Shown: positions 20,038-32,319 of the stretch, piece by piece
Layout: every line of letters starts with the position of its first letter
How positions within the stretch are numbered: the stretch's first letter is position 1
Source: Nitrospira sp.
GTDB taxonomy: Bacteria; Nitrospirota; Nitrospiria; Nitrospirales; Nitrospiraceae
Direction: 5' to 3'
Length of the DNA stretch: 64,000 nt
Assembly (NCBI GenBank): GCA_020846195.1
Contig: JADLEJ010000046.1
Span: forward strand, 6,115 to 70,114
Translations under genes and position numbers: made by a program
Notes under the pieces: model-generated
Databases searched by the model: none
What the model saw: the letters and a program-made list of their open reading frames with translations, nothing else
What the model was told of the DNA's origin: nothing

Positions 20038-20844
20038 ATGTTACCCTCAACTTTTGTGATCCTCCAGGGGATCGGTCCCAAAACTGAACGGCGCCTTTGG
20101 CACGAGGGCCTGCTCACGTGGAACGATTTCCTGAGCCAGCCGGGGATTTCAGGAATCTCCGCCCCGCGCAAGCAGTGGTACGACCAGGAGCTCCTCCAGG
20201 CTCAATCGGCATTCGATTCAGGGCAACTCGGCTATTTCGCCGCGCGATTGCCCAGCCGCGATCATTGGCGTTTTTTCGAACTATGCGAACCCCAGGCGCT
20301 GTATCTGGACATCGAAACCACCGGCACTTCTCCGCATGACGGCGAGGTGACCGTCGTGGGACTGCACCGGCGTGGAGAAACGGTCTGCCTGGTCCGTGGA
20401 GAAACGCTGACGGTGGAACGGCTCCAGGCGGAATTGGATGCCTGCACGCTTCTCGTCACGTTTTTCGGAACGAGCTTTGATGTGCCGTACCTGCGCGCCA
20501 AATTCCCCGAACTCAGATTCTCCATGCCGCATTTCGACCTCTGCTTCGCCGCGCGGCGGCTGGGCCTGCGCGGCGGACTCAAACAGATCGAACGGGAACT
20601 GGGAATCGAACGGGATTCGGCGCTGCGCAATCTGGACGGCTGGGACGCCGTGCGGCTCTGGATGCAATGGCGCGCGGGCGATGCCGGCGCGCGGGATCTG
20701 CTCCTGGCCTACAACGCCGCCGATACGGCCAATCTGGCTCCGCTGGCGAAACATGTGTTTCAGGATAGTGCCTCGCGCTTTGGCCCAGCCTCGGCCGGCG
20801 CGTCCAGGCTGTTTCACCCAGACCGGCAGGAGCTTCACGCATGA
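20038..20844 (+). CDS. HhH + RNase H-like (YprB/PolB-exonuclease-like) nuclease
   Basis: N-terminal LQGIGPKTERRLWHEGLLTWNDF (helix-hairpin-helix). Acidic exonuclease motifs LYLDIETTG and YNAADTANL. Confidence 0.6.
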   Translation: MLPSTFVILQGIGPKTERRLWHEGLLTWNDFLSQPGISGISAPRKQWYDQELLQAQSAFDSGQLGYFAARLPSRDHWRFFELCEPQALYLDIETTGTSPHDGEVTVVGLHRRGETVCLVRGETLTVERLQAELDACTLLVTFFGTSFDVPYLRAKFPELRFSMPHFDLCFAARRLGLRGGLKQIERELGIERDSALRNLDGWDAVRLWMQWRAGDAGARDLLLAYNAADTANLAPLAKHVFQDSASRFGPASAGASRLFHPDRQELHA

Positions 20845-21590
20845 GCGCCTGGATTGGAATCGGACGAAGCGACATCGGCCTCGTCCGCGCCATGAATCAA
20901 GACGCCTTCGTCGCCATGAACCATCTGGGATTCTGGGCCGTGGCCGATGGCATGGGTGGACATGCCGGCGGAGAAGTGGCGGCTCAATCCGCCATCGCCA
21001 CCGCTGCCGCGCGAGCCGAGTCGTTCGCAGATTCGCTCCGCAACGGCTCCTGCGCGCCGCAGGATTTCCTGCGGGATATGATCGCCGAGGCGCACGAAGC
21101 CGTCCTTGAACGCGCGCGGCGGGAGCCCCGGCTGTCTCAGATGGGAACCACCCTGGTCACACTGCTGATCACCTCCGATGCCACGCCGACCGCTCACCTC
21201 GCCCATGTGGGCGACAGCCGCGGATACCTCTTTCGGAACGGCCAACTGACCCAGTCGACCCAAGATCATACGTTGATCGAAACCTATCTCGCTCGCGGAA
21301 TTGTCACTCCAGCAGAAGCCAAAACCCATCCTGAGCGACATGTATTGACGAAAGCGATCGGCATTGCCCACTCCGCCGAACATGATTATTCCGCCTGCCC
21401 GCTCCTACCGTCCGATGTCCTGCTGCTCTGCTCCGATGGGCTCACAAAGATGCTGGAGGATGCCGACCTCGCCGGCATCCTGGCACGCGCGCAAGGCGAT
21501 CCGATCCTGATCTGCGATCGCTTGATCGAAATGGCTCTCGCCCGCGGCGGCGACGATAATGTGACCGTCGTCGCAATCGCGCTCCCCTAG
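20841..21590 (+). CDS. PP2C-family Ser/Thr phosphatase
   Basis: RAMNQDAF ... VADGMGGHAGGEVA ... GGDDNVTVV. ATGA overlap with the upstream gene. Confidence 0.85.
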   Translation: MSAWIGIGRSDIGLVRAMNQDAFVAMNHLGFWAVADGMGGHAGGEVAAQSAIATAAARAESFADSLRNGSCAPQDFLRDMIAEAHEAVLERARREPRLSQMGTTLVTLLITSDATPTAHLAHVGDSRGYLFRNGQLTQSTQDHTLIETYLARGIVTPAEAKTHPERHVLTKAIGIAHSAEHDYSACPLLPSDVLLLCSDGLTKMLEDADLAGILARAQGDPILICDRLIEMALARGGDDNVTVVAIALP

Positions 21591-21712: not shown

Positions 21713-22594
21713 ATGCCCGATCTGTCTCGGATCTCTTTTTTCGTCTTATCAGGATATCTGTTGCTCGCCCCGGTCTCCGGATTCGCCGATGACAATACAG
21801 GGCCTGAAGCCGCAATCCGCGCTCTAGTGGACGCCAACGCCGCACGAGACCTCGATGGCATGTCCCGGCTGATGGCGCACGATGACGACGCCACGGGCTA
21901 TACCATCGGCGGACGGAAGTACGTCGGATGGCCGGAGCTGGAGCGGGACATTCGCGACGAATTCGCTTTTGTGGAAAAACTGGAAATGCCCATCACCGAC
22001 CTCAAGGTCTGGACGAAAGGCGACCTAGCCTGGTTCACGATGGAACTAGATTACATCCGCTTCGTCAACGAAGGCGGTGAGCGCCACCACACCGTCATCC
22101 CCTTGAGAGAAAGCGGCGTGCTTGAAAAGCGGCAGGGCCAATGGCTGTTGATCTCTTGGCATGAATCGCTCCGTGCGGCGAACTGGCCCGCAGTAGCTCA
22201 CCAGCCGCCTGCAGCACCGGCGCTCCAGCTAGTCGCCGACCCTGGAGTCTTGCGTGCCCCCATCGCAGACCTGAGCGGCGAATGGGAAATTCTGGAAGTC
22301 GAGGACGACAAGCGCTATAAGGCCACGCTGGATAAATCCGGCAATGGCCCCTATACACAGCATGGCGGACGCTTTACGACCACGAAGGTCGCCGACCGGC
22401 TCTGGCAAGGCACCTGGCAGCAACCCGGCAACGACCGCGAGGGGGCGTTCGAACTCTTGCTGTCGGAGGATGGCATGCAGGCCAAGGGTGTCTGGTGGTA
22501 TTCCCGGGTCGGCACGCACAAAAATATTCCTCCGCGTGAACATGGCGGCACCTATCAATGGAAACGGCTCACACAGCCTATCCAAGTCCAATGA
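21713..22594 (+). CDS. exported two-domain protein, SnoaL/NTF2-like N-terminal half
   Basis: Signal peptide. The N-terminal half has the NTF2-like pattern (AIRALVDANAARDLDGMSRLMAHD ... WLLISWHES). The C-terminal ~120 aa is not recognised. Confidence 0.45.
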   Translation: MPDLSRISFFVLSGYLLLAPVSGFADDNTGPEAAIRALVDANAARDLDGMSRLMAHDDDATGYTIGGRKYVGWPELERDIRDEFAFVEKLEMPITDLKVWTKGDLAWFTMELDYIRFVNEGGERHHTVIPLRESGVLEKRQGQWLLISWHESLRAANWPAVAHQPPAAPALQLVADPGVLRAPIADLSGEWEILEVEDDKRYKATLDKSGNGPYTQHGGRFTTTKVADRLWQGTWQQPGNDREGAFELLLSEDGMQAKGVWWYSRVGTHKNIPPREHGGTYQWKRLTQPIQVQ

Positions 22595-22671: not shown

Positions 22672-23670
22672 ATGTATTGGATGCTCGTGCTTTCTCTCAC
22701 TGCACTGATAGGCACTCCGGCATTTGCCGACGGCGGACATGACCACCATGCCGTGCCCACATTGAAAAACCAGACCACGACGACGGTCACCATTAAAGAC
22801 AACACCGTCACTCTAACCTTCGGCCCCATCGATCTCCCGACCGACCATGACGGCGACTTAGCCGCCTCGATGCCGAAGCATAACTTTCAGCTGCCCGAAG
22901 ACATGTACATGGTGGGGTATAAATCGGCGGTCTTTACCAAAGAGGGCAAGGAACTTCCCAGAAATTACCTTCACCATATCTTGATGATGAACAACACCAA
23001 GCCCAGCGTCTCCTGCCCTGGAGAGCCGCTGTTCTTCGCGGGCGCCGGCCTGGAAATGACCGAGGCCCGGTTTCCGGAAGGCTATGGCGTCAAGCTGGCC
23101 AAGGGCGATCGCCTCATGTCGGTCGTCGCCTTCTACCACAAAGCGCCAACGACGAAAAATGTGATGGCGTCTTTCACCATGTACATGGCGCCGAAGTCCA
23201 AGCCAGTGAAGGAAATGGATGTCTATCAGGTCGGCGTCAACATTGTCTGCTACAGCAAGTTCGGCGCGCGCGGCGCCGATCAGACGGACGAAGGCATTGA
23301 AATCCGCCCCGGCGTTCAGGTGCATACGGCGCCGCTGAAATTCTCGATGGACGGCTGCGTGAAATTTGCCTATCCGCACGGCCACGATGAATTGCTGATG
23401 ATTGCACTTGAGGACAAGGCGAACAAACGCACGCTCCTCCGGACGGTCCCCGATGTGGACCTGGATGGAACCTTTCGAGAGTTTCAGCCGCATCAGGTCT
23501 ACAAGGACACCCGAGGATTTTCCGTCCTGCAATCGGGCGACTACGATATGGTGATGGTCCATCATCACCCGTTGCAGAAAGCCGAGTTCCAATATGGCAT
23601 GGGAAACTATCTGCTCTATATGACTCCTGGCGCGTGCCGCACCGCCGATATCGCACGGGCGAATCCGTAA
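22672..23670 (+). CDS. exported PHM/DBH-like copper monooxygenase homologue (putative)
   Basis: ORF 22558..23670 trimmed to the Met at 22672 (signal peptide ending AFA). Ligand-like pattern: HH (LHHILMM, aa 101-102), H (FYHKAP, 156), HxH (YPHGHD, 236/238), M (YGMGNYLLYM, 310). Confidence 0.5.
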   Translation: MYWMLVLSLTALIGTPAFADGGHDHHAVPTLKNQTTTTVTIKDNTVTLTFGPIDLPTDHDGDLAASMPKHNFQLPEDMYMVGYKSAVFTKEGKELPRNYLHHILMMNNTKPSVSCPGEPLFFAGAGLEMTEARFPEGYGVKLAKGDRLMSVVAFYHKAPTTKNVMASFTMYMAPKSKPVKEMDVYQVGVNIVCYSKFGARGADQTDEGIEIRPGVQVHTAPLKFSMDGCVKFAYPHGHDELLMIALEDKANKRTLLRTVPDVDLDGTFREFQPHQVYKDTRGFSVLQSGDYDMVMVHHHPLQKAEFQYGMGNYLLYMTPGACRTADIARANP

Positions 23671-23690
23671 ACGCGTCCTCCCCTCCTCGC

Positions 23691-23729
23691 GCCCGCCGGC
23701 CTCCTCTCACTGACGAGAAACCGGCGGGC
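23691..23729 (+). terminator. 9-bp GC stem hairpin downstream of the PHM-like gene
   Basis: GCCCGCCGG (23691-23699) pairs with CCGGCGGGC (23721-23729). The loop is long and there is no U-tract, so intrinsic-terminator status is uncertain. Confidence 0.3.
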
Positions 23730-24003
23730 ACAATCTCTTCGCATCCATACACTCGTCCAAAATTGTTCGTACGGAACAGTGCGCCCTCTTCCCCCTACGA
23801 AAGAATCTCGCACTTACGTCGATTGGGACTGTGAGTGAGATACCTCGATATGGTATTCAAGACGGTAAACCGGCTCGGGATGCCGATTTGACGCCTCTTC
23901 CGCCAAGAGGCCAAGACCGCCGTCATCGCACGCACAGGATGTTGTACGCGTACCCCTTTGGGATTGAGCCGACTCGGCGCTCCCAGTAACACGGAAGTAG
24001 TCC

Positions 24004-27000
24004 ATGCCGCAGAGTGAGCCGATTACCATCCTCGTCGTCAATGAGCAAGCCGACGAAATCAAGCTGGTGACGCTGAGCCTCCGCGGCTTCTTTCCCGATT
24101 GCCGAGTTGAGTCGGTGTATTCTTCCGAAGAAGCGCTTCGGTGGGTGAATCACGCTGAATGGGACCTGATCCTGGTCGATGAGCGGCTCGGGCTCCAGAG
24201 CCGCCCGTCGCTGGTTGCTACCCTCAGGGAACGTCTTCCGACTACCGCTATCGTGCTTCAGACCGACCGGAGCGATTCGACCGCCGCCGTGACGGCACTG
24301 CAAGCTGGCGCCGACTTTCTTCTTTTCAAAAAATCGCCCGCATTTCTGACCGAATTGGTGCTCTACACCAAAGGCGCCATCGAACAACGCCGTCTCCGCG
24401 CCATGTTCGCGCGCACGCACGACCGGCAGACGCATCTGCTGGAAACACTCACGGATGTGCTCTATGAAGTCGATGCCGAAGGGCGGTTTGTCTTTATTAG
24501 TCCAGGCATCACCGTCCTGCTGGGCTATCAGCCTGAAGAACTGACCGGCACTCCCTTTTCCAAGCTGATTCCTCCCGATCAACAAGCGCGCGCGCAATAT
24601 CGTATCAATGACCGCCGGACAGGCCCTCGGGCAGCACGCCGAGTCTTGCTAGAATTGCTCAAGAAGCCTCAGCCCACAGACTCCGACCAGACTCGTGCAC
24701 AGACGGAAGTCAGCGCCAAGGGACTCTACGACGCGCGCCGACGCTACACCGGCACTCTCGGGCTCATCCGAGACATAACCGGACACCTCGCGCAGGCCGA
24801 GACCATTCAGCGGCTTGAAACCAGACTGCTCGAATCGGACCGCCATCACGCGATTGCACAGCGCTTGATCAACCTGTCGCATGAGTTGCACAAGCCCCTC
24901 TCCGCCGTATTGACCCAGTCCCAGCGGCTGATGGAAACGATCCGCGACGCCCAGCTCGATACCCGCATTGACGCCCTCACGGCGCATGCACGGGAGGCTT
25001 CGGCCTGCGGGGACGCGCTGGCTCAGGCCGTCGTCGATGCCGGCCTCGCCGAAGACGCACTAAGTCAAGTCATCGCCGACGCCCTGGCGCCCATCGCGCA
25101 TCTCGGCATTGTGCAGCACCACAATACGACGGGCCTCTTGGAGGTTGGCAATGCACGAAATATCTGGGTGCGCATCATTCAGATTGTGGTCATCCAGGCG
25201 ATTCGCCAGATGGCTGCCCGCCATACAATTCACCGGCTGAACATCTTCGCGCAAGCCGTTACGGCCACCGGAGCCCCGATCGAACAAACGCCTGGCCTCT
25301 TTCCCAATCCGGCACCTCAAGAAGTCGAAATTCTGATTCAGGAAACCGAATCGGTGGCGGCCCTCACAGTCGATTCACTACCGGCCGCCCCGGATCTAAT
25401 CCAGGCCTATGAAGACATCGGCCAGCTGCAGGGCCGCATGGAGTGGCTCGCCCCGGCGAGGCAGCCGCTCTCAGTCCGCCTGTGGCTGCCGATTCCTGAA
25501 ATGCCTCAGCCCGCTGAAACACCGGCAGAAGCCCCGCCAAGTCCGCCTGAATCATCCGTGCCGGCAACGAGCGATACTCGTCTGGACATCGATCTGTCTC
25601 CCCCTTCTGACAAACCGCTCCCGGATCGGAGACTAGCCGCGCGCGCCGCAGTCCACCTTCCGGCGCGAGTGACCGTCGGCCCTTCGGTACGCGAGGGAAC
25701 CGTTCATACGTTGAGCCTGACCGGAGCCACCGTCTCCCTGGCGGGACCGCTCCCGAATCTATCGGAGCAATCGGCTTATTTGGTATTCAAGACCGTCGTA
25801 GGGATTCTGGAGCTTCACGCCACCGTCCACGAACGTGGCATGCAGACCGACCCTTCCGCTGACGCAAGAAACCGCCCGGTCCTCGCCTTCGAATTTTCTC
25901 CGCCCGGCGAAACCGAGCAAAAAGTTCTCGGCTCCTTTATCGAAGCTGCCCAAGAGCGGAGCTTGGAGATCAGCCTTGAGGCGTTACTGTCACAGCCGGA
26001 CGAGGCCGCGCGTCCAGATCAAACCGGTTCTGGCCACCGGGTAACCGACCACCGGGAAGGCATCAGAGTCAGAGTCGCGCTTCCGGTGCGGATTGAACAG
26101 TCTCCCGAGCAGAACCCTGCGGCTCGACAACTTGGACTGGCGGTGAATTTTTCACGCGGAGGGGCATGCCTGCAGGCTAAAACCCTTCCCGGCCAGGTGG
26201 GCGAAACGATCCTCTTGCATTTCCCTCAGGGCAACGGGCAGACGCATTCGCAGCCTCACGAACCGGCCGCGCCGGATGCCGTCCTCTCGGCGAAAATCGT
26301 GTGGGCCGCTCCGGATACCACCGTCCCCTCGGAGCTGCGTCCGGCCCGCACTGAACCGGGGCAACGCTTCGGCGTCCAGTTCAGCAACCTCCCGGCCTTC
26401 GCCGAACGCGAGGTGAATCGCGTCGTGGCCCAACATATCGGCTCATCCATCGATTTGGATGGCATCGCCGGCCGCGCAGCCATTGTCAGCGCCCGGCGAG
26501 AATGCCGGAACGCGCGCGGCCAAGTCATCGCAATCACCGACGATCACGCGCGCCACCAGATCTCCCCCAGTACGCCCATTGTGATTCTCTCGCCCGGCTT
26601 CGGCTGCACCCAGACCGACTACGTCGCGCTGTCGGAATTCCTGGCCCTCAATCGGCTCCGCGTCCTGCGCTACGATTACAGCAACCACATTGGCCAAAGC
26701 GATGGCGATGTTCTTCAGACCACACTGCGGAGCATGCAAGCCGATCTGCACACGGTCCTCGAGTTTGCGCAGACAACATGGCCCACGGCCTCGCTCGCCA
26801 TCCTGGCCGAAGATGTCGCGGCCCGAGTCGCGCTGAAAGTCGTCGCACAGCAACCTGCCGCGCATCTGCTTCTGCTGGCCAACCCGGTGCTCGATATTCA
26901 GACCGCCCTGTCGGCCGGGCATCATCACGACCTCCTGGCCGACTATCGGCACGGCCTCAGACGCGGCAGCGGGAATGTATGGGGCCTCAATATCAACCTC

Positions 27001-28158
27001 GATCAGTTCTTGAGCGATATTATCGCCGGCCACTACGACACGCTGGCCACGACGGTGGCCGATCTGTCCGCGCTGACCGTCCCGATGGTCATCCTCAACT
27101 CTCCGCCAACGGACCCCTCGATGCGGTATCCCTTTCCCAGTCCGGACGAATCGCTTCGAGCGTTGCCGGCAATGCCAACCACCGTCTCGATCCCCAGCAC
27201 GTTATCGGTGACAGGCCGCGCCTTCGACGCCCGCTTCGTCGCATCGTTCCACACCCTGTTTACAGAGATTGCTCGCGTGTGCACCTTGGGAGACTCCGCA
27301 CCGGCCATGCACACCCCGACCAGTCACGATATTTCCAAACAATATCTCCTGGAACGTGAGCGCATTCGTATTCGCCACCATGTCTCGCAGTCGACCCGTG
27401 ACGCCTTGTGGATCGCGCATCTCGCCCAGCTTCCGCAGCTGGGCACCCTGCATCACCATGTGCGGCTGCTTCAAGACCTGTATCAACAGGCCCTTCCGCT
27501 TGAGCCTGGCATGCGCATACTGGATATCGGATGCGGCGAAGGAGAGTTCGCGCAAACCCTCGCCGTCAATCGCATGTACCACCGGCTCCACGCGTCGCAT
27601 GTACCGCAACGCCCCCTGCACTATCTTGGAATCGACCGCTCTGAGGAAACGGTGTCGGCAGCGGAACAGGCCTTCACAGCGCTGCATCAAGAGTTGCAAT
27701 CGATGTTTCCCGTAGCCGCTGCTCCGGCACCCGCGGTAACGGCCGAATGGGGTACCCGCCTCCCGGTCGCGCATGCTTCTGCCGACCGGATCGTCAGCCA
27801 TCTCGCGCTATCCTTCACGGCCTCTCCGCTCACCTTTCTGCGACAGGCCATCACAACACTCGCGCAAGATGGGCATCTCATCGTGACATGCGTGCAGCCG
27901 CACACAGATCTTGCCGGACTTTATCGTGAACAGCTGCATCGCGCCGGACAGGATGAGCTGTCTCCGGCGGCTCAAATTTTCCTCCACTACCTGGGGCGGC
28001 TGCATGAAGCTATTCGCCATGGACTGCTGCACTCGTTTGACCGGGAACAACTGTCCGGTCTCTTGACTCATGCCGGAGCAATCCCTCTTCGAATCGTGCC
28101 TGTCCTCGATGGGCAACTCCTTCTCGCCACAGCCAGAAAGGGGAAATCCGCTGGCTGA
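24004..28158 (+). CDS. 1384-aa multidomain signalling protein: REC-PAS-HisKA-degenerate HATPase-PilZ-PilZ-LuxD-like alpha/beta fold-SAM methyltransferase
   Basis: REC: LILVDE, IVLQTD, LLFKK. PAS: DVLYEVDAEGRFVFISPG. H-box: LSHELHKPLSAV. PilZ motifs: RRLAAR/TLSLTG and HREGIR/NFSRGG. LuxD-like: ILSPGFG...RVLRYDYSNHIGQSDG...LAILAEDVAARVALKV. MTase motif I: ILDIGCGEGEF. Confidence 0.8.
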   Translation: MPQSEPITILVVNEQADEIKLVTLSLRGFFPDCRVESVYSSEEALRWVNHAEWDLILVDERLGLQSRPSLVATLRERLPTTAIVLQTDRSDSTAAVTALQAGADFLLFKKSPAFLTELVLYTKGAIEQRRLRAMFARTHDRQTHLLETLTDVLYEVDAEGRFVFISPGITVLLGYQPEELTGTPFSKLIPPDQQARAQYRINDRRTGPRAARRVLLELLKKPQPTDSDQTRAQTEVSAKGLYDARRRYTGTLGLIRDITGHLAQAETIQRLETRLLESDRHHAIAQRLINLSHELHKPLSAVLTQSQRLMETIRDAQLDTRIDALTAHAREASACGDALAQAVVDAGLAEDALSQVIADALAPIAHLGIVQHHNTTGLLEVGNARNIWVRIIQIVVIQAIRQMAARHTIHRLNIFAQAVTATGAPIEQTPGLFPNPAPQEVEILIQETESVAALTVDSLPAAPDLIQAYEDIGQLQGRMEWLAPARQPLSVRLWLPIPEMPQPAETPAEAPPSPPESSVPATSDTRLDIDLSPPSDKPLPDRRLAARAAVHLPARVTVGPSVREGTVHTLSLTGATVSLAGPLPNLSEQSAYLVFKTVVGILELHATVHERGMQTDPSADARNRPVLAFEFSPPGETEQKVLGSFIEAAQERSLEISLEALLSQPDEAARPDQTGSGHRVTDHREGIRVRVALPVRIEQSPEQNPAARQLGLAVNFSRGGACLQAKTLPGQVGETILLHFPQGNGQTHSQPHEPAAPDAVLSAKIVWAAPDTTVPSELRPARTEPGQRFGVQFSNLPAFAEREVNRVVAQHIGSSIDLDGIAGRAAIVSARRECRNARGQVIAITDDHARHQISPSTPIVILSPGFGCTQTDYVALSEFLALNRLRVLRYDYSNHIGQSDGDVLQTTLRSMQADLHTVLEFAQTTWPTASLAILAEDVAARVALKVVAQQPAAHLLLLANPVLDIQTALSAGHHHDLLADYRHGLRRGSGNVWGLNINLDQFLSDIIAGHYDTLATTVADLSALTVPMVILNSPPTDPSMRYPFPSPDESLRALPAMPTTVSIPSTLSVTGRAFDARFVASFHTLFTEIARVCTLGDSAPAMHTPTSHDISKQYLLERERIRIRHHVSQSTRDALWIAHLAQLPQLGTLHHHVRLLQDLYQQALPLEPGMRILDIGCGEGEFAQTLAVNRMYHRLHASHVPQRPLHYLGIDRSEETVSAAEQAFTALHQELQSMFPVAAAPAPAVTAEWGTRLPVAHASADRIVSHLALSFTASPLTFLRQAITTLAQDGHLIVTCVQPHTDLAGLYREQLHRAGQDELSPAAQIFLHYLGRLHEAIRHGLLHSFDREQLSGLLTHAGAIPLRIVPVLDGQLLLATARKGKSAG

Positions 28159-28270: not shown

Positions 28271-29533
28271 ATGACTACCTCCCCCTCTCACCAGGCCGCC
28301 GACTCATCTATCGTGCTCACCCCTCTCCAGCGGCTGACCCGGTTTGCCCAAGATATGGGAACGCTCACCGACCGCGCCGTCATTGCCGAACGCATTCTCA
28401 TTGAACTCTGCGACGCCACAGACTCTCAACAGGGCGCGCTGTACCTGCTGGATCGCGAACATGACCAATATGACTGCGTGATGACCGTCGGCAGTCAGAA
28501 TACATCGACGGCCATCGCCTCTTTTGCTTCAACCCACACGCTTATTCAATCGCTCGTCCACGAGCATTCTATGCTCTTGGCCACGGAAAACCCGCCGATC
28601 AAGCCGGAATTAACCGATGTCTTACGGACAACCCACTCGTCGCAGGCTGTTGCGCTGCTCAATAAAGGCCGATTGATCGCCTTTGCGCTACTCGCCCCCG
28701 GCTTGGGCCGGCCGCTCGATCATGCGGACGGACGGGACTTCCTCCTCGCTCTGGCCCAAAGCGGGGCCAACGCCTTGGATTCCATCCTGATGAATGACGA
28801 TCTCCACCAGTCTCAAACGCTTATGCGCCGCACCGACCGGCTGCGCTCCTTGGAAACGATCGCCGGCGGGTTTGCCCACGAAATCAGGAACCCACTCACG
28901 TCGATCAAAACGTTTATCCAGCTGGCCCCGGAACGAAAGGACGACGCGGAGTTTATCTACGACTTTAGCCGCATTGTCCTGGACGATGTGCATCGGATCG
29001 AACGGCTGATTCAGGAAATCCTGGACTACGCTCGTTACATGGAACCGAAGCTGACGGATGAGGATCTCAATGAGATCGTTACCTCCTGCCTCTATTTCAT
29101 CGAAGTAAAGGCGGACAGCAAGCGGATCAAGATTGAAAAAGAGTTGGCGCCCGGGCTTCCTCGTGTCATGTTAGATCGTCAACAAATAAAGCAGGTGCTC
29201 TTGAACCTCCTGTTGAACGCGATCGATGCCATGGGAGATGGCGGCGGACAGCTGAAGGTGCGAACGCACCGGCTCGTAAAACCTGGGGCGGCCGCGTGGA
29301 CGCAGATTGAGATTGAAGATAACGGTCCGGGCATTTCCAAAGCGAACCTGGAGCATATTTTCGATCCGTTCTTCACCACAAAACACACCAGCGGCGAGCA
29401 TGCGGGAACGGGCTTGGGGTTGACGATTGTGCATCAGATTATTCAAGAGCATCGTGGCGAAATTCAGGTCGAGAGCACCGAGGGAGTGGGAACCACGTTT
29501 TCCGTGAATCTTCCGGCCCTCCCGATAGACTAG
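28271..29533 (+). CDS. cytoplasmic sensor histidine kinase (GAF-like sensor, HisKA, HATPase_c)
   Basis: ORF 28070..29533 trimmed to ATG 28271. H-box FAHEIRNPLTSI, N-box LLNLLLNAIDAM, G1 EDNGPGI, G2 GTGLGL. Confidence 0.85.
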   Translation: MTTSPSHQAADSSIVLTPLQRLTRFAQDMGTLTDRAVIAERILIELCDATDSQQGALYLLDREHDQYDCVMTVGSQNTSTAIASFASTHTLIQSLVHEHSMLLATENPPIKPELTDVLRTTHSSQAVALLNKGRLIAFALLAPGLGRPLDHADGRDFLLALAQSGANALDSILMNDDLHQSQTLMRRTDRLRSLETIAGGFAHEIRNPLTSIKTFIQLAPERKDDAEFIYDFSRIVLDDVHRIERLIQEILDYARYMEPKLTDEDLNEIVTSCLYFIEVKADSKRIKIEKELAPGLPRVMLDRQQIKQVLLNLLLNAIDAMGDGGGQLKVRTHRLVKPGAAAWTQIEIEDNGPGISKANLEHIFDPFFTTKHTSGEHAGTGLGLTIVHQIIQEHRGEIQVESTEGVGTTFSVNLPALPID

Positions 29534-29540
29534 GAGTACT

Positions 29541-30971
29541 GTGGAAAGTCCAGCTATGAAAAAACGCGTTCTCTTGATCGACGACGAAGCCCGTGTCCGG
29601 ACTTCACTGAAGATGGTGCTCGAGCCCAACTACGAAATCCTGCAAGCGGCGGATGCTCAAGAGGGGCTCGATACATTTAGAAAAGAAGGGCCCGATCTGG
29701 TCCTGCTCGATGTTATTCTCCCAGGAACGGATGGACTGGCCGTGCTGGAAACCCTGCGCTCAGAAAGCCGGATGACTCCGGTGATCATGCTCACAGGCAC
29801 GAAGTCGGTTAAGACGGCCGTCGACGCAATGAAACTGGGCGCCGCCGACTATTTATCCAAACCCTTCGACGTCGAAGAATTGCGCATTGTCGTAGACCGG
29901 GCGCTCAGCTCGCAGGCGCTCGAACGCGAAGTGAAACAACTCAGGGCGCAAGTCGTCCAGCGCTATGCCTTCCACAACCTCATTGGCAAGAGCCAGGGGA
30001 TGCAGGAAATCTACGCGAAGATCGAACAAGTCGCGGATAGCCGAACCACCGTGCTGATTACCGGCGAAAGCGGAACCGGAAAAGAGCTCGTTGCCAAAGC
30101 CCTCCATTACAACAGCGGCCGGCGCGAACGCCCCTTTATCGCGCTGAATTGCGCGGCCCTCCCGGAAACGCTGATTGAAAGCGAGCTCTTCGGTCACGAA
30201 AAAGGCTCCTTTACCGATGCCACGGCCAGGCGGGTCGGCCAGTTCGAACTCGCCAACACCGGCACCTTGTTCTTAGACGAAATCGGCGATCTCAGCGCCA
30301 TGACACAGGCCAAACTTCTCCGAGTCCTCCAGGAGCGGGAGTTTACGAGAATCGGTGGCGTTCAATCGATTAAGGTCGATGTCAGAATTGTTGCCGCCAC
30401 TAACAGAAATCTCGAAGACATGGTGCGCAAAGGACAATTCCGTGAAGATCTGTACTACCGCATCAATGTGATTTCGCTGTTTCTTCCTCCGCTCCGTGAA
30501 CGTGGCGAAGATATTCCCCTGCTAGCCAAGCATTTCCTAGCCAAGCGAATCGAGGAAGAGAAGCGCCCGCATATCGAGTTTGGGAAAGAAGCGCTGGAAG
30601 TACTGACTCGCTACCCCTGGCCGGGCAACGTCCGGGAAATGGAAAATATCATCGAGCAGGCCTTTATCTGGTCGCAGAATTGCGCTCAGATCACCCAAGA
30701 ACATCTGCCGACTATTCTGAAAAGCGACTCGCGATCATCCTCGCTCCGCGACGACACGCTTGCCGGCCGTATGTCCCTTGAAAAAGCCGTCATGGAATTC
30801 GAGCGAGAAATTATTCTCGACGCATTAAAGCGAACGAACTATGTCCAGACCCATGCGGCCAATCTCTTAGGAATCAGCCGGCGCATGCTGAAATACCGTA
30901 TGGATACCTTGGGAATTGGCCGACCGGACAATGGAAGCAGTCAAGAGCCAGAGCCGCCGGTGCAGGAATAA
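29541..30971 (+). CDS. sigma-54-dependent response regulator (NtrC/AtoC type: REC-AAA+-Fis HTH)
   Basis: VLLIDDE...LVLLDVILPG. Walker A GESGTGKE. GAFTGA-variant EKGSFTDA. C-terminal HTH AANLLGISRRMLKYRM. Confidence 0.9.
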   Translation: MESPAMKKRVLLIDDEARVRTSLKMVLEPNYEILQAADAQEGLDTFRKEGPDLVLLDVILPGTDGLAVLETLRSESRMTPVIMLTGTKSVKTAVDAMKLGAADYLSKPFDVEELRIVVDRALSSQALEREVKQLRAQVVQRYAFHNLIGKSQGMQEIYAKIEQVADSRTTVLITGESGTGKELVAKALHYNSGRRERPFIALNCAALPETLIESELFGHEKGSFTDATARRVGQFELANTGTLFLDEIGDLSAMTQAKLLRVLQEREFTRIGGVQSIKVDVRIVAATNRNLEDMVRKGQFREDLYYRINVISLFLPPLRERGEDIPLLAKHFLAKRIEEEKRPHIEFGKEALEVLTRYPWPGNVREMENIIEQAFIWSQNCAQITQEHLPTILKSDSRSSSLRDDTLAGRMSLEKAVMEFEREIILDALKRTNYVQTHAANLLGISRRMLKYRMDTLGIGRPDNGSSQEPEPPVQE

Positions 30972-31123: not shown

Positions 31124-31139
31124 AGGAATAAGTATTGCT
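31124..31139 (+). promoter_or_regulatory. candidate sigma-54 (-24/-12) promoter
   Basis: AGGAATAAGTATTGCT: GG (31125-31126) then 10 nt then GC (31137-31138), with TTGCT at -12. Lies 26 nt upstream of ATG 31165, and a sigma-54 activator is encoded immediately upstream. Confidence 0.45.
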
Positions 31140-31164
31140 TGACAGGTTACGTAGTTGGGGGTAC

Positions 31165-32319
31165 ATGAGCATTATGAGCACAACACTTTCTCAAAATGGA
31201 TCCAAAGTAAAGCCAACGATTCTTGTTGTCGATGACGAGGCCGGTCCGCGTGACGCACTGAAAGTCATCTTGCGGCCCTTCTTCAACATCCGCTCAGCCG
31301 ATAACGCGCAGGCCGCCCTCGACGTCTTGAGCCATGAATCCGTCGATCTCATTACACTAGACCAGAAACTCCCCGATCGCCAAGGCATCGACCTCCTGCA
31401 AGATATTAAGCACGACCACGCCGACATCGAAGTGATTATCATCACCGGGTATGGAAGCCTGAAGTCCGCCATGGAAGGCATTCGACATGGGGCGGCCGGC
31501 TATTTGCTCAAGCCATTTAATGTGACAGAACTGATTTCTCTCATCAGCCAAACCCTTGAGAAGAAGCAGCGCTTGGATCTCCTCAGAAAGACCCTGACCG
31601 ACTCGCCTGCCTTATGGGCCGGCGATGAGGAGGGACGGCGTGCGTGGGAAACTCTGAAGACCAGCTATTTTGCGATTGGAACACGCGAGGAGCAGGACAG
31701 CTTGTCAGGATCGCCGGATCTTCTTCCACTGCTCTCAGACCTTATGGAAGCCAAAGACCGGCAATTGCTGAGTCATTGCAGCCGCGTCAGCTTCTACGCC
31801 ACGTTGCTCGCCAATCGCCTCAGTCTGACGCTCGCAGAGCAGAAGTCTTTGGCTATCGGAGCCTTCCTGCACGACATCGGAAAAGTCAGCCTCCCCAATT
31901 ATCATTTTTGGGATGAGCCGATCCTCCCGTCTGGAGAAAGCGCCCTTTCCAAAGAGCATTGCGAGACAGGCGCACGGATGATCCTCCCCCTGGGATATCC
32001 AGCCGAGGTCGGCCAGGTCATTTCCTCTCATCATGAACGGTGGGACGGATCGGGCTATCCTCATGGACTTCAGGGAGAAGGGATTCCCTTGCTAGCCAGG
32101 ATTGTCAGCATTGCCCAACTGTTCGATCACCTGACAGCGGAAGCCCCAGGACGGTCGCCGCTCTCTGTCGATCAAGCCATTCAGCAAATCGCCCTTCACG
32201 CCAACACCTATTTCGATCCTATGCTGGTAGATCAATTTGCCAGGGTTGCGACCGAATGCAAGGCCTCGCTTTCCGCAATGGCCATTGCGACGACGCCGAA
32301 CGGCGTCTCCAGCCTGTAG
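31165..32319 (+). CDS. response regulator with HD-GYP domain (c-di-GMP phosphodiesterase, RpfG-like)
   Basis: ORF 31135..32319 trimmed to ATG 31165 (GGGGG RBS). REC: ILVVDDE, LITLDQKLPD. HD-GYP: FLHDIGK and HHERWDGSGYP. Confidence 0.85.
   Translation: MSIMSTTLSQNGSKVKPTILVVDDEAGPRDALKVILRPFFNIRSADNAQAALDVLSHESVDLITLDQKLPDRQGIDLLQDIKHDHADIEVIIITGYGSLKSAMEGIRHGAAGYLLKPFNVTELISLISQTLEKKQRLDLLRKTLTDSPALWAGDEEGRRAWETLKTSYFAIGTREEQDSLSGSPDLLPLLSDLMEAKDRQLLSHCSRVSFYATLLANRLSLTLAEQKSLAIGAFLHDIGKVSLPNYHFWDEPILPSGESALSKEHCETGARMILPLGYPAEVGQVISSHHERWDGSGYPHGLQGEGIPLLARIVSIAQLFDHLTAEAPGRSPLSVDQAIQQIALHANTYFDPMLVDQFARVATECKASLSAMAIATTPNGVSSL

Follow-up and report, generated by a model that had tools for sequence, protein, structure and literature searches.

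A genus-wide Nitrospira protein with two PilZ domains and degenerate kinase and hydrolase modules heads a conserved four-gene signalling cassette

What could be the function of a single bacterial protein that joins a receiver, a PAS domain, a histidine-kinase-like module, two PilZ domains, a LuxD-like domain and a methyltransferase? Such a protein is encoded by one open reading frame (ORF) at positions 24004-28158, hereafter the big gene, in a 64,000-nucleotide (nt) stretch of Nitrospira sp. DNA (contig JADLEJ010000046.1 of assembly GCA_020846195.1, positions 6,115 to 70,114 of the forward strand), which is the whole stretch analysed and is called the window below. The big gene is the Nitrospira orthologue of the first gene in a conserved four-gene cassette, in which the big protein is followed by a histidine kinase, an NtrC-type activator and a protein combining a receiver (REC) with an HD-GYP domain. 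On balance, and with about even confidence, we regard the window protein as a pseudoenzyme or scaffold that is controlled by cyclic di-GMP (c-di-GMP) and acts on the adjacent two-component system, possibly being still a methyltransferase. This explanation is preferred because the PilZ residues for c-di-GMP alone are strictly kept while the other sites are degenerate: the hydrolase triad, the ATP motifs of the catalytic and ATP-binding (CA)-like domain and the receiver pocket have degenerated in the window protein, the His of the dimerization and histidine phosphotransfer (DHp) hairpin is not conserved, and the partner kinase lacks the seven-transmembrane (7TM) region.

The preliminary description of this ORF, made from the letters alone, called it a chimeric signalling enzyme with an architecture that it could match to no characterised protein. 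A protein search returned 172 matches. In the best 120, of 1377-1458 aa, coverage of the query is 100% and identity 39-85%, with one partial exception; these best matches come from Nitrospira or Nitrospiraceae and are named only 'PilZ domain-containing', 'PAS domain S-box' or 'methyltransferase domain-containing'. The closest named homologue belongs to Nitrospira lenta (84% identity), and 119 of the matches are full-length orthologues of 1363-1458 aa, with 38-86% identity. When one genome per species was scanned, 174 species-representative genomes were found to encode a relative, the best 80 being all Nitrospira, Nitrospiraceae or Nitrospirota and including comammox bins. The idea of a unique chimera has therefore to be given up in favour of a conserved orthologue in all Nitrospira examined, which elaborates a widespread core of a LuxD-like domain and a methyltransferase. 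An artefact, in the form of an assembly join, a fusion of frameshifted neighbours or a pseudogene, can be practically dismissed: the same 1363-1458-aa architecture spans 100% of the query in 119 independent homologues with identities as low as 38% and recurs in 80 independent genome assemblies. The 1384 codons contain no internal stop, the base composition runs along the ORF without a break and with a smooth GC profile, and every domain is highly conserved. The single uninterrupted ORF thus stands as described, and Pfam, AlphaFold2 and Foldseek together bear out all nine segments that had been named in it. The architecture turned out to be common throughout Nitrospira, and no functional description of it was found; the statement that it has no characterised match also holds, with generic names in the databases, no NCBIfam equivalog and no description in the literature. 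The features of the ORF are the following.

24004..28158, + strand: complete ORF, 1384 aa plus stop, ATG start, in the order REC-PAS-DHp-CA(pseudo)-PilZ-PilZ-LuxD-like(pseudo)-methyltransferase
24022..24369, + strand (aa 7-122): atypical receiver; D59, T87 and K109 present, acidic pocket N13-E14
24430..24789, + strand (aa 143-262): PAS domain (Pfam PAS, PAS_9 and PAS_4; TIGR00229; predicted fold)
24790..25038, + strand (aa 263-345): DHp-like helical hairpin with SHELHKPL (H293); His not conserved in orthologues
25057..25491, + strand (aa 352-496): CA-like alpha/beta domain, a predicted pseudo-ATPase without N, G1 and G2 boxes
25492..25617, + strand (aa 497-538): Pro-rich disordered linker (pLDDT <50), poorly conserved and length-variable
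25618..25968, + strand (aa 539-655): PilZ domain 1; R542-R543-xxx-R547, T569-x-S571-xx-G574; beta-barrel and C-terminal helix
26044..26439, + strand (aa 681-812): PilZ domain 2; R684-xxx-R688, N715-x-S717-xx-G720; Pfam PilZ at 683-809
26473..27285, + strand (aa 824-1094): LuxD-like alpha/beta-hydrolase; Asp937 at the nucleophile position, no catalytic acid or His
27322..28155, + strand (aa 1107-1384): class I methyltransferase dependent on S-adenosylmethionine (SAM); motif I ILDIGCGEG (1172-1180), motif II acid D1211

The evidence for c-di-GMP control lies in the PilZ pair. Residue counts here and below refer to an alignment of the 119 full-length Nitrospira orthologues, and structures were predicted with AlphaFold2 in two pieces, an N-half and a C-half, from an input alignment of 82 sequences. 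Pfam recognised PilZ (PF07238) in two stretches at 51-58 bits (cut-off 22.5), and both the RxxxR and the [D/N]xSxxG motifs of the family could be found. In the first domain R542, R543, R547 and G574 are each present in 119/119 orthologues, and position 569 is N in 58, D in 25 and T in 21, the Thr of the window protein being non-canonical. In the second domain R684, R688 and G720 are likewise each kept in 119/119, N715 is Asn in 111 and Asp in eight, and S717 is retained in 113. The C-half model (pLDDT 82, pTM 0.77) contains two beta-barrels with helices, an alpha/beta hydrolase and a Rossmann methyltransferase, and each of the two barrels carries its own helix (636-650 and 798-811). Judging from these residues, the window protein probably binds c-di-GMP via its PilZ pair.

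Could the N-terminal half act as a kinase? The N-half model (pLDDT 81.6) comprises the receiver, a long linker helix, the PAS domain, the DHp hairpin at 259-345 (helices 259-316 and 320-345) and the alpha/beta domain at 352-496. Its best Foldseek matches are PAS-DHp-CA kinases, for example YF1 (4GCZ) with ~400 columns aligned, and NifL-NifA (9QQ6) and LvrB are also among them. Pfam matched Response_reg (PF00072) to aa 9-111 (42 bits, cut-off 30.2) and PAS to aa 144-258. In the receiver, the phospho-acceptor set is present with D59 in 111/119, T87 as T in 81 or S in 35, and K109 as K in 106 or R in 11. The acidic DD pair for Mg2+ is replaced, since position 13 is N or S only and position 14 varies (E in 69, D in 23, A in 15, P in 10), in agreement with the earlier remark that the pocket, N13-E14, is not DD. 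HisKA matched aa 290-323 at 13-17 bits, under the cut-off of 26.9, both in the whole protein and in the isolated region, and H293 is His in 15/119 orthologues, the others having mainly K (41), Q (32) or R (14). No HATPase_c match was obtained in the CA-like region even when it was scanned alone at E<=10, and the alignments of this domain show no conserved Asn, DxGxG or GxGxG. Despite the missing ATP boxes, its predicted fold is kinase-like. The preliminary description had correctly noted the absence of the N and G boxes, the SHELHKPL stretch with H293, the ILDIGCGEGEF motif and the Pro-rich linker, which corresponds to the low-confidence segment at ~497-538. Its proposal of a phosphorelay input survives only for the atypical receiver, because H293 is not conserved and the ATPase-like domain lacks ATP-binding motifs. 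An active hybrid histidine kinase was rejected on the same two grounds, the missing ATP-binding motifs and the non-conserved His.

LuxD is an acyl-ACP/CoA (ACP, acyl carrier protein) thioesterase-acyltransferase, and the question for the LuxD-like domain is whether it could still carry out such a reaction. The Pfam match to Acyl_transf_2/LuxD (aa 848-1032, 57 bits) covers profile positions 21-202 of 294 only, and the score of 56.6 bits falls short of the NCBIfam LuxD equivalog cut-off of 420. By phmmer, LuxD (1THT) was aligned with E=5e-14 and with Ser114 opposite Asp937; it is also the top Foldseek match of the hydrolase domain, with a TM-score of 0.76 normalised to LuxD over 304 columns. A search of a plasmid collection yielded only a lux reporter LuxD. 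Asp937 is Asp in 118/119 orthologues. The catalytic triad Ser114-Asp211-His241 is lost, the positions of D211 and H241 being T/V in the MAFFT alignment or D/S in the hmmalign alignment, and neither holds a conserved residue among the orthologues. The D211 and H241 positions were assigned with a LuxD sequence of which residues 16-207 match the 1THT alignment and the triad numbering is self-consistent. The LuxD-like domain of the window protein thus appears not to be competent as a Ser hydrolase. Alternatively, it could be an alpha/beta hydrolase with a new chemistry, in which the carboxylate of Asp937 makes the nucleophilic attack, a mechanism known from haloalkane dehalogenases and epoxide hydrolases, or Asp937 is the general base. 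Asp nucleophiles are indeed established in this fold, and the invariant Asp sits exactly at the elbow within conserved surroundings ([AS][ES]D-x-[ASGT]-A-R). However, in Asp-nucleophile enzymes the hydrolysis of the ester intermediate depends on a His and an acid, neither of which follows strands beta7 and beta8 here as a conserved residue, and Gly or Asn occupies the Asp937 position in other relatives with long N-terminal extensions (long forms). Because of these Gly and Asn residues and the lack of a conserved His or acid, decay accounts better for the site than a re-engineered active site, and the new chemistry is considered very improbable.

The methyltransferase domain presents a less uniform picture. 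Methyltransf_23 was matched at aa 1151-1358, Methyltransf_31 and _11 were also above cut-off in Pfam, and 3L8D, 6F5Z and 4OBW were retrieved by Foldseek as Rossmann-fold matches. The window protein contains motif I (D/E-x-G-x-G-x-G) as well as the strand-2 acid, D1211; the latter position is G in 48, D in 40 and E in 23 orthologues and hence is not conserved. The full SAM motif set was found in 53/119 orthologues, and in 17 of the 18 members of the clade of the window protein (at least 60% identity). Since the SAM residues are incomplete in 66/119, catalysis is not the conserved function of the orthologous group.

These counts bear directly on the main rival explanation, which we hold to be possible and keep in view as the minority opinion: only the methyltransferase is active, gated by c-di-GMP through the PilZ pair, and the dead hydrolase serves as a substrate-binding module for an acyl or carboxylate compound and presents it to the methyltransferase, the product or a methylated protein (e.g., the partner kinase) then feeding the signalling by histidine kinase and NtrC-type activator. 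The canonical ILDIGCGEG and D1211, together with the motif set being complete in nearly the whole clade, speak for it. The compact C-half model suggests that its four domains pack as one unit, and there is an established precedent in the PilZ protein MapZ, which controls the methyltransferase CheR1. On the other hand, more than half of the orthologues have lost the motif II acid or residues of the glycine loop although the gene is still full-length, and the gene surroundings in Nitrospira point to no substrate. Selection seems to have kept both c-di-GMP sites and a non-catalytic LuxD-like fold; the SAM site seems to have decayed in many lineages.

Several observations weigh against the protein being a c-di-GMP-controlled pseudoenzyme or scaffold. 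First, the most conserved segment of the whole protein is the LuxD-like domain, with 36 invariant residues among the 119 orthologues and an invariant-type Asp at its nucleophile elbow, which could mean a different chemistry instead of none. Second, the methyltransferase motifs of the window protein are canonical, so that it may still be an enzyme. Third, D59, T87 and K109 are largely conserved, so that the receiver may be a working phospho-acceptor. Finally, gene order is maintained across Nitrospira over the whole region, RecN and AhpC included, which makes synteny within the genus weak evidence of functional linkage between the big gene and its neighbours. The stronger evidence of linkage is that the cassette recurs outside Nitrospira.

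Within the genus, 83 Nitrospira loci were compared. Downstream of the big gene and on the same strand, the histidine kinase was found in 77 of them, the NtrC-type activator in 74 and the REC-HD-GYP gene in 67; the missing genes are explained by contig ends, except in one locus (L037), which is without the HD-GYP gene. In the window, the three genes are as follows.

28271..29533, + strand: partner histidine kinase (GAF-like + HisKA + HATPase_c by Pfam), soluble; next gene in 77/83 loci
29541..30971, + strand: NtrC-type sigma-54 activator (REC-AAA+-HTH_8 by Pfam); the same position is filled in non-Nitrospira cassettes
31135..32319, + strand: REC-HD-GYP c-di-GMP phosphodiesterase (Pfam HD_5 and Response_reg); HD at aa 246, HHERWDGSGYP at 299-309

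The kinase gene follows the big gene after a gap of 112 nt. As listed, the kinase ORF begins at 28070, so that its first 89 nt lie within the big ORF; the lengths of its homologues (405-449 aa) and the alignment to 7TM kinases place the true start at the Met at 28271. The partner kinase of locus L161 is a 7TM kinase of 724 aa, and over residues 301-705 of it the window kinase shows 55% identity; the identity to the partner kinase of locus L148 is likewise 55%. The window kinase has no HisKA_7TM region: it starts at the GAF-like region and is without a transmembrane segment. The NtrC-type activator is 84-100% identical across Nitrospira, far above its neighbours (the big gene is at 38-86%). Its Walker A motif is GESGTGK, and its GAFTGA loop is altered to GSFTDA. 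No NCBIfam equivalog was assigned to it, the closest being AtoC (522 bits, cut-off 714), and for the kinase and the activator together only sub-threshold AtoS/AtoC-like and PrsK/PrsR-like scores were obtained. The HD and HHExxDGxGYP motifs of the REC-HD-GYP protein are intact. No sigma-54 promoter (TGGCAC-N5-TTGC) was detected in 23671-24003, the scan giving fewer matches than chance.

How, then, might the cassette work in Nitrospira? The window protein would be a c-di-GMP receptor with a pseudo-kinase and a pseudo-hydrolase as its framework. It would adjust the activity of the soluble GAF-kinase encoded next to it and, through this kinase, NtrC-dependent transcription as well as the activity of the HD-GYP protein. 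Phosphorylation at D59 and the PAS domain possibly add further control, and the receiver, with its conserved D59, T87 and K109 and its atypical pocket, may take phosphate from the partner kinase. A ligand or a partner may be bound in the pocket of the dead hydrolase, and the methyltransferase may still be active in the lineage of the window protein. As the HD-GYP protein degrades c-di-GMP, the cassette would feed back on the PilZ domains in a closed loop.

Where this protein came from becomes clearer in the wider family. An exhaustive search of 1.84 billion cluster representatives, with aa 535-1384 as the query, returned 493 relatives, 134 of them below 1e-30. A core of ~550 aa (window aa 824-1384) aligns end to end in 117 cluster representatives, preceded by an N-terminus of 0 to ~860 residues. 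Pfam searches on examples revealed the core alone (~565 aa), PilZ-core, PilZ-PilZ-core, SRPBCC/Polyketide_cyc-core, PilZ-SRPBCC-core and the long REC-PAS-...-PilZ-PilZ-core. Named hosts are few (Omnitrophota, Opitutales with Opitutus and Lacunisphaera, and WOR-1), the protein names are all generic, and no model specific to the core family is included in the family libraries. Alignment of 120 cores with LuxD placed Ser in 80, Asp in 91 and His in 86 of them at the triad positions. The full S-D-H set is found in 26/28 cores with an N-terminal extension of <60 aa, in 36/39 with 60-230 aa and in 12/17 with 230-330 aa; with an extension of >600 aa, where D, G or N takes the nucleophile position, it is found in only 3 of ~30. 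Among 82 short-form loci from metagenomes, all independent, S-D/E-H was present in 81 and the five SAM residues were intact in 82/82. The window core retains the SAM residues but not the triad. Because the short forms keep both the triad and the SAM residues, the Nitrospira protein is best seen as a derived member with a degenerate hydrolase.

This series also decides what can be kept of the earlier proposal of an enzyme acting on an acyl or lipid-like substrate. For the wider family the proposal finds good support in an intact triad and a context of ACP, beta-ketoacyl-ACP synthase (KAS), FadL and SRPBCC proteins; as Ser-hydrolase chemistry in the window protein it fails, and an enzyme gated by both phosphorylation and c-di-GMP fits the short-form relatives better than the window gene. 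In its full version the proposal would make the window protein an active bifunctional enzyme, combining LuxD-like acyl transfer or thioester hydrolysis with methylation on an acyl or lipid substrate and switched by receiver phosphorylation and c-di-GMP. The intact short forms in their lipid/ACP context, the canonical motifs I and II of the window methyltransferase, the strong purifying selection on the LuxD-like domain and two canonical PilZ domains argue in its favour. Against these stand Asp937 in place of LuxD Ser114 in 118/119 orthologues, the absence of any conserved residue at the D211 and H241 positions, the partial coverage of the LuxD profile (21-202 of 294) and the incomplete SAM residues in 66/119, and we consider this version unlikely.

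Outside Nitrospira, the core gene is again accompanied by a kinase. In the first two short-form contexts the next gene encodes a HisKA_7TM kinase, whose start overlaps the core stop in one and lies 16 nt downstream in the other, and in one of the two a gene for a HisKA_7TM-GAF-GGDEF cyclase lies 5' of the core. In nearly all of 80 further loci, a kinase of ~720 aa with multiple predicted transmembrane segments (usually 5-8) starts -25 to +54 nt from the core end. Where the sequence extends far enough downstream, 66 of 70 loci have the 7TM kinase directly 3' of the core, and the +1 gene bears the 7TM region in 74/81 loci. The +2 and +3 genes encode single receivers, REC-AAA+ sigma-54 activators or (REC-)HD-GYP proteins, and exactly the order of the four genes in the window is seen again in seven loci, which comprise short and long cores (L131, L139, L148, L149, L151, L161 and L164). 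A deep Nitrospira-like contig (L167) with identical flanking synteny has kept the HisKA_7TM kinase, and thus the 7TM sensor was probably lost on the way to the genus Nitrospira. That the hydrolase nucleophile and the 7TM region of the kinase were always lost together was considered and not upheld, since the same contig has Gly at the nucleophile position yet a 7TM kinase. No description of the window architecture or of the cassette of core and 7TM kinase was found in the literature.

The context of the short forms points to lipids. An SRPBCC lipid-binding domain is fused in many of them, and a gene for a FadL/TodX outer-membrane channel divergently adjoins the core in ~19-24 loci. Most likely, the short-form core frees an acyl product from its carrier and O-methylates it, and the adjacent 7TM kinase would sense the product. 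A possible alternative is a cycle of opposing methylation and demethylation of the BioC/BioH or CheR/CheB type. Extending the former, one may tentatively propose that the core and the 7TM-GAF kinase constitute a widespread 'make-and-sense' system: an acyl-ACP pathway would feed the thioesterase-methyltransferase, and a signal of the fatty-acid methyl ester type (cf. 3-OH-PAME/MAME of Ralstonia, the methyl esters of 3-hydroxypalmitic and 3-hydroxymyristic acid) would be sensed by the 7TM kinase and in some loci by a 7TM-GGDEF cyclase, with PilZ putting the synthesis under c-di-GMP and HD-GYP closing the loop. On this tentative scheme, Nitrospira would have turned the synthase into a dead c-di-GMP receptor and made the kinase soluble, keeping the circuit and dropping the diffusible signal.

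Three variants of these loci may be recorded. In one clade, the core is part of an operon (L087:3178-13423, metagenome contig Ga0364919_10019) that contains, in this order, genes for a KAS, a FabG-type reductase, an ACP, a FabA/Z dehydratase, the core, another KAS, a nitroreductase, an FAD amine-oxidase-like oxidoreductase, the 7TM kinase and a receiver, and looks like a self-contained unit for the biosynthesis and sensing of an acyl-derived molecule. In L086:4630-11740 (JGI 3300031898), L116 and L117, the same HisKA_7TM region heads both the upstream GAF-GGDEF cyclase and the downstream GAF-kinase of a PilZ-SRPBCC-core gene, so that one type of membrane sensor would drive two outputs around the core. 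In L123-L127, L141, L144 and L147 (e.g., L124:8970-10826), the +2 gene encodes a 618-643-aa protein with a sigma-54-type AAA+ domain and HisKA; a normal REC-AAA+ activator follows, and a divergent FadL/TodX gene precedes the core gene.

Upstream of the big gene, the window contains a gene for a PP2C Ser/Thr phosphatase of the Stp1 type (20841-21590, +), whose 226 bits are just below the equivalog cut-off of 230, followed by one for a 293-aa SnoaL_3 protein (21713-22594, +), both syntenic in Nitrospira only. Directly 5' of the big gene, in all cases, is a gene for a 332-aa protein (22672-23670, +) with a signal peptide (MYWMLVLSLTALIGTPAFA) and His-rich stretches, which is 70-95% identical across Nitrospira and had no Pfam or NCBIfam match. 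These three genes and an RNase_H_2-like gene are syntenic only in Nitrospira-like genomes. They were considered as parts of the system and set aside, being absent from the short-form metagenome loci L084-L166.

Living in aggregates and biofilms, Nitrospira oxidises nitrite and performs complete ammonia oxidation in soils, waters and wastewater plants, and c-di-GMP is the main bacterial switch for this lifestyle. A single-copy, genus-wide predicted c-di-GMP receptor that is accompanied by a sigma-54 activator and a phosphodiesterase is therefore a strong candidate for a core lifestyle regulator, in hosts that are hard to approach genetically. The conserved multi-phylum cassette of a LuxD-like thioesterase-methyltransferase and a 7TM kinase, often with PilZ, GGDEF or HD-GYP domains, may encode a new lipid-derived signal together with its receptor. 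In addition, the members of the family form, within a single orthologous framework, a clean natural series that leads from an active enzyme to a pseudoenzyme.

The single domains are all familiar and PilZ-gated effectors are a known kind of protein. The window protein and its relatives can be compared with several known systems. LuxD, the myristoyl-ACP thioesterase/acyltransferase of Vibrio harveyi, is the closest to aa 824-1094 by both sequence and structure and shares with it the segment RYD-x-x-x-H-x-G-x-S-x-G and the elbow ...S-A-R-V-A. It differs in that the window protein has Asp for Ser114 and no counterpart of D211 and H241, and in that the window domain is fused to a methyltransferase and stands outside a lux context. 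Among PilZ receptors (YcgR, Alg44, BcsA and MapZ), MapZ with CheR1 provides the likeness of a PilZ module coupled to a methyltransferase; unlike these, the window protein has tandem PilZ domains in one polypeptide with a pseudo-kinase before them and a hydrolase-methyltransferase core after them, and its methyltransferase is of the generic class I rather than CheR. The PilZ surveys consulted do not describe this architecture. With pseudo-histidine kinases and NifL-NifA, the window protein shares a PAS-DHp-GHKL-like module without the hallmarks of autophosphorylation, and a gene for an NtrC-family activator lies two genes downstream. However, a bona fide kinase gene stands between the window gene and the activator gene, and the window module has a receiver before it and PilZ and enzyme-like domains after it; contact of the pseudo-kinase module with the NtrC-type activator is a speculative possibility.

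BioC/BioH, which handle acyl-ACP methyl esters, and CheR/CheB, which serve in adaptation, are each a methyltransferase and an esterase for a single carboxyl group, and they resemble the short forms in combining methyltransferase and hydrolase activities. BioC is among the best NCBIfam methyltransferase matches of the short forms (E=3e-10), with scores far under the family cut-offs, and the automatic JGI names of relatives read 'SAM-dependent methyltransferase/pimeloyl-ACP methyl ester carboxylesterase'. Here the hydrolase is LuxD-like rather than of the BioH or CheB type, however, and no biotin or chemotaxis context is present. The phcBSRQ quorum-sensing operon of Ralstonia is similar in gene logic. 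There, the methyltransferase PhcB makes methyl 3-hydroxymyristate or methyl 3-hydroxypalmitate and the kinase PhcS senses it, PhcR consists of a receiver and a kinase domain and PhcQ is a receiver (PMC8578825). PhcB has not been reported with a LuxD-like domain, and the output of the Phc system runs via PhcA. No PhcB model was among the NCBIfam matches. The output of the cassette would be by NtrC and HD-GYP instead of PhcA, and the Nitrospira protein differs further in having no hydrolase triad and a kinase without a membrane sensor. In both systems, nevertheless, a methyltransferase gene directly precedes the genes for a membrane histidine kinase and receivers, and a soluble module of a receiver and a kinase-like part belongs to the system; by analogy, the short-form core, with its thioesterase-like and methyltransferase domains and its ACP, KAS and FadL neighbours, could make a fatty-acid methyl ester.

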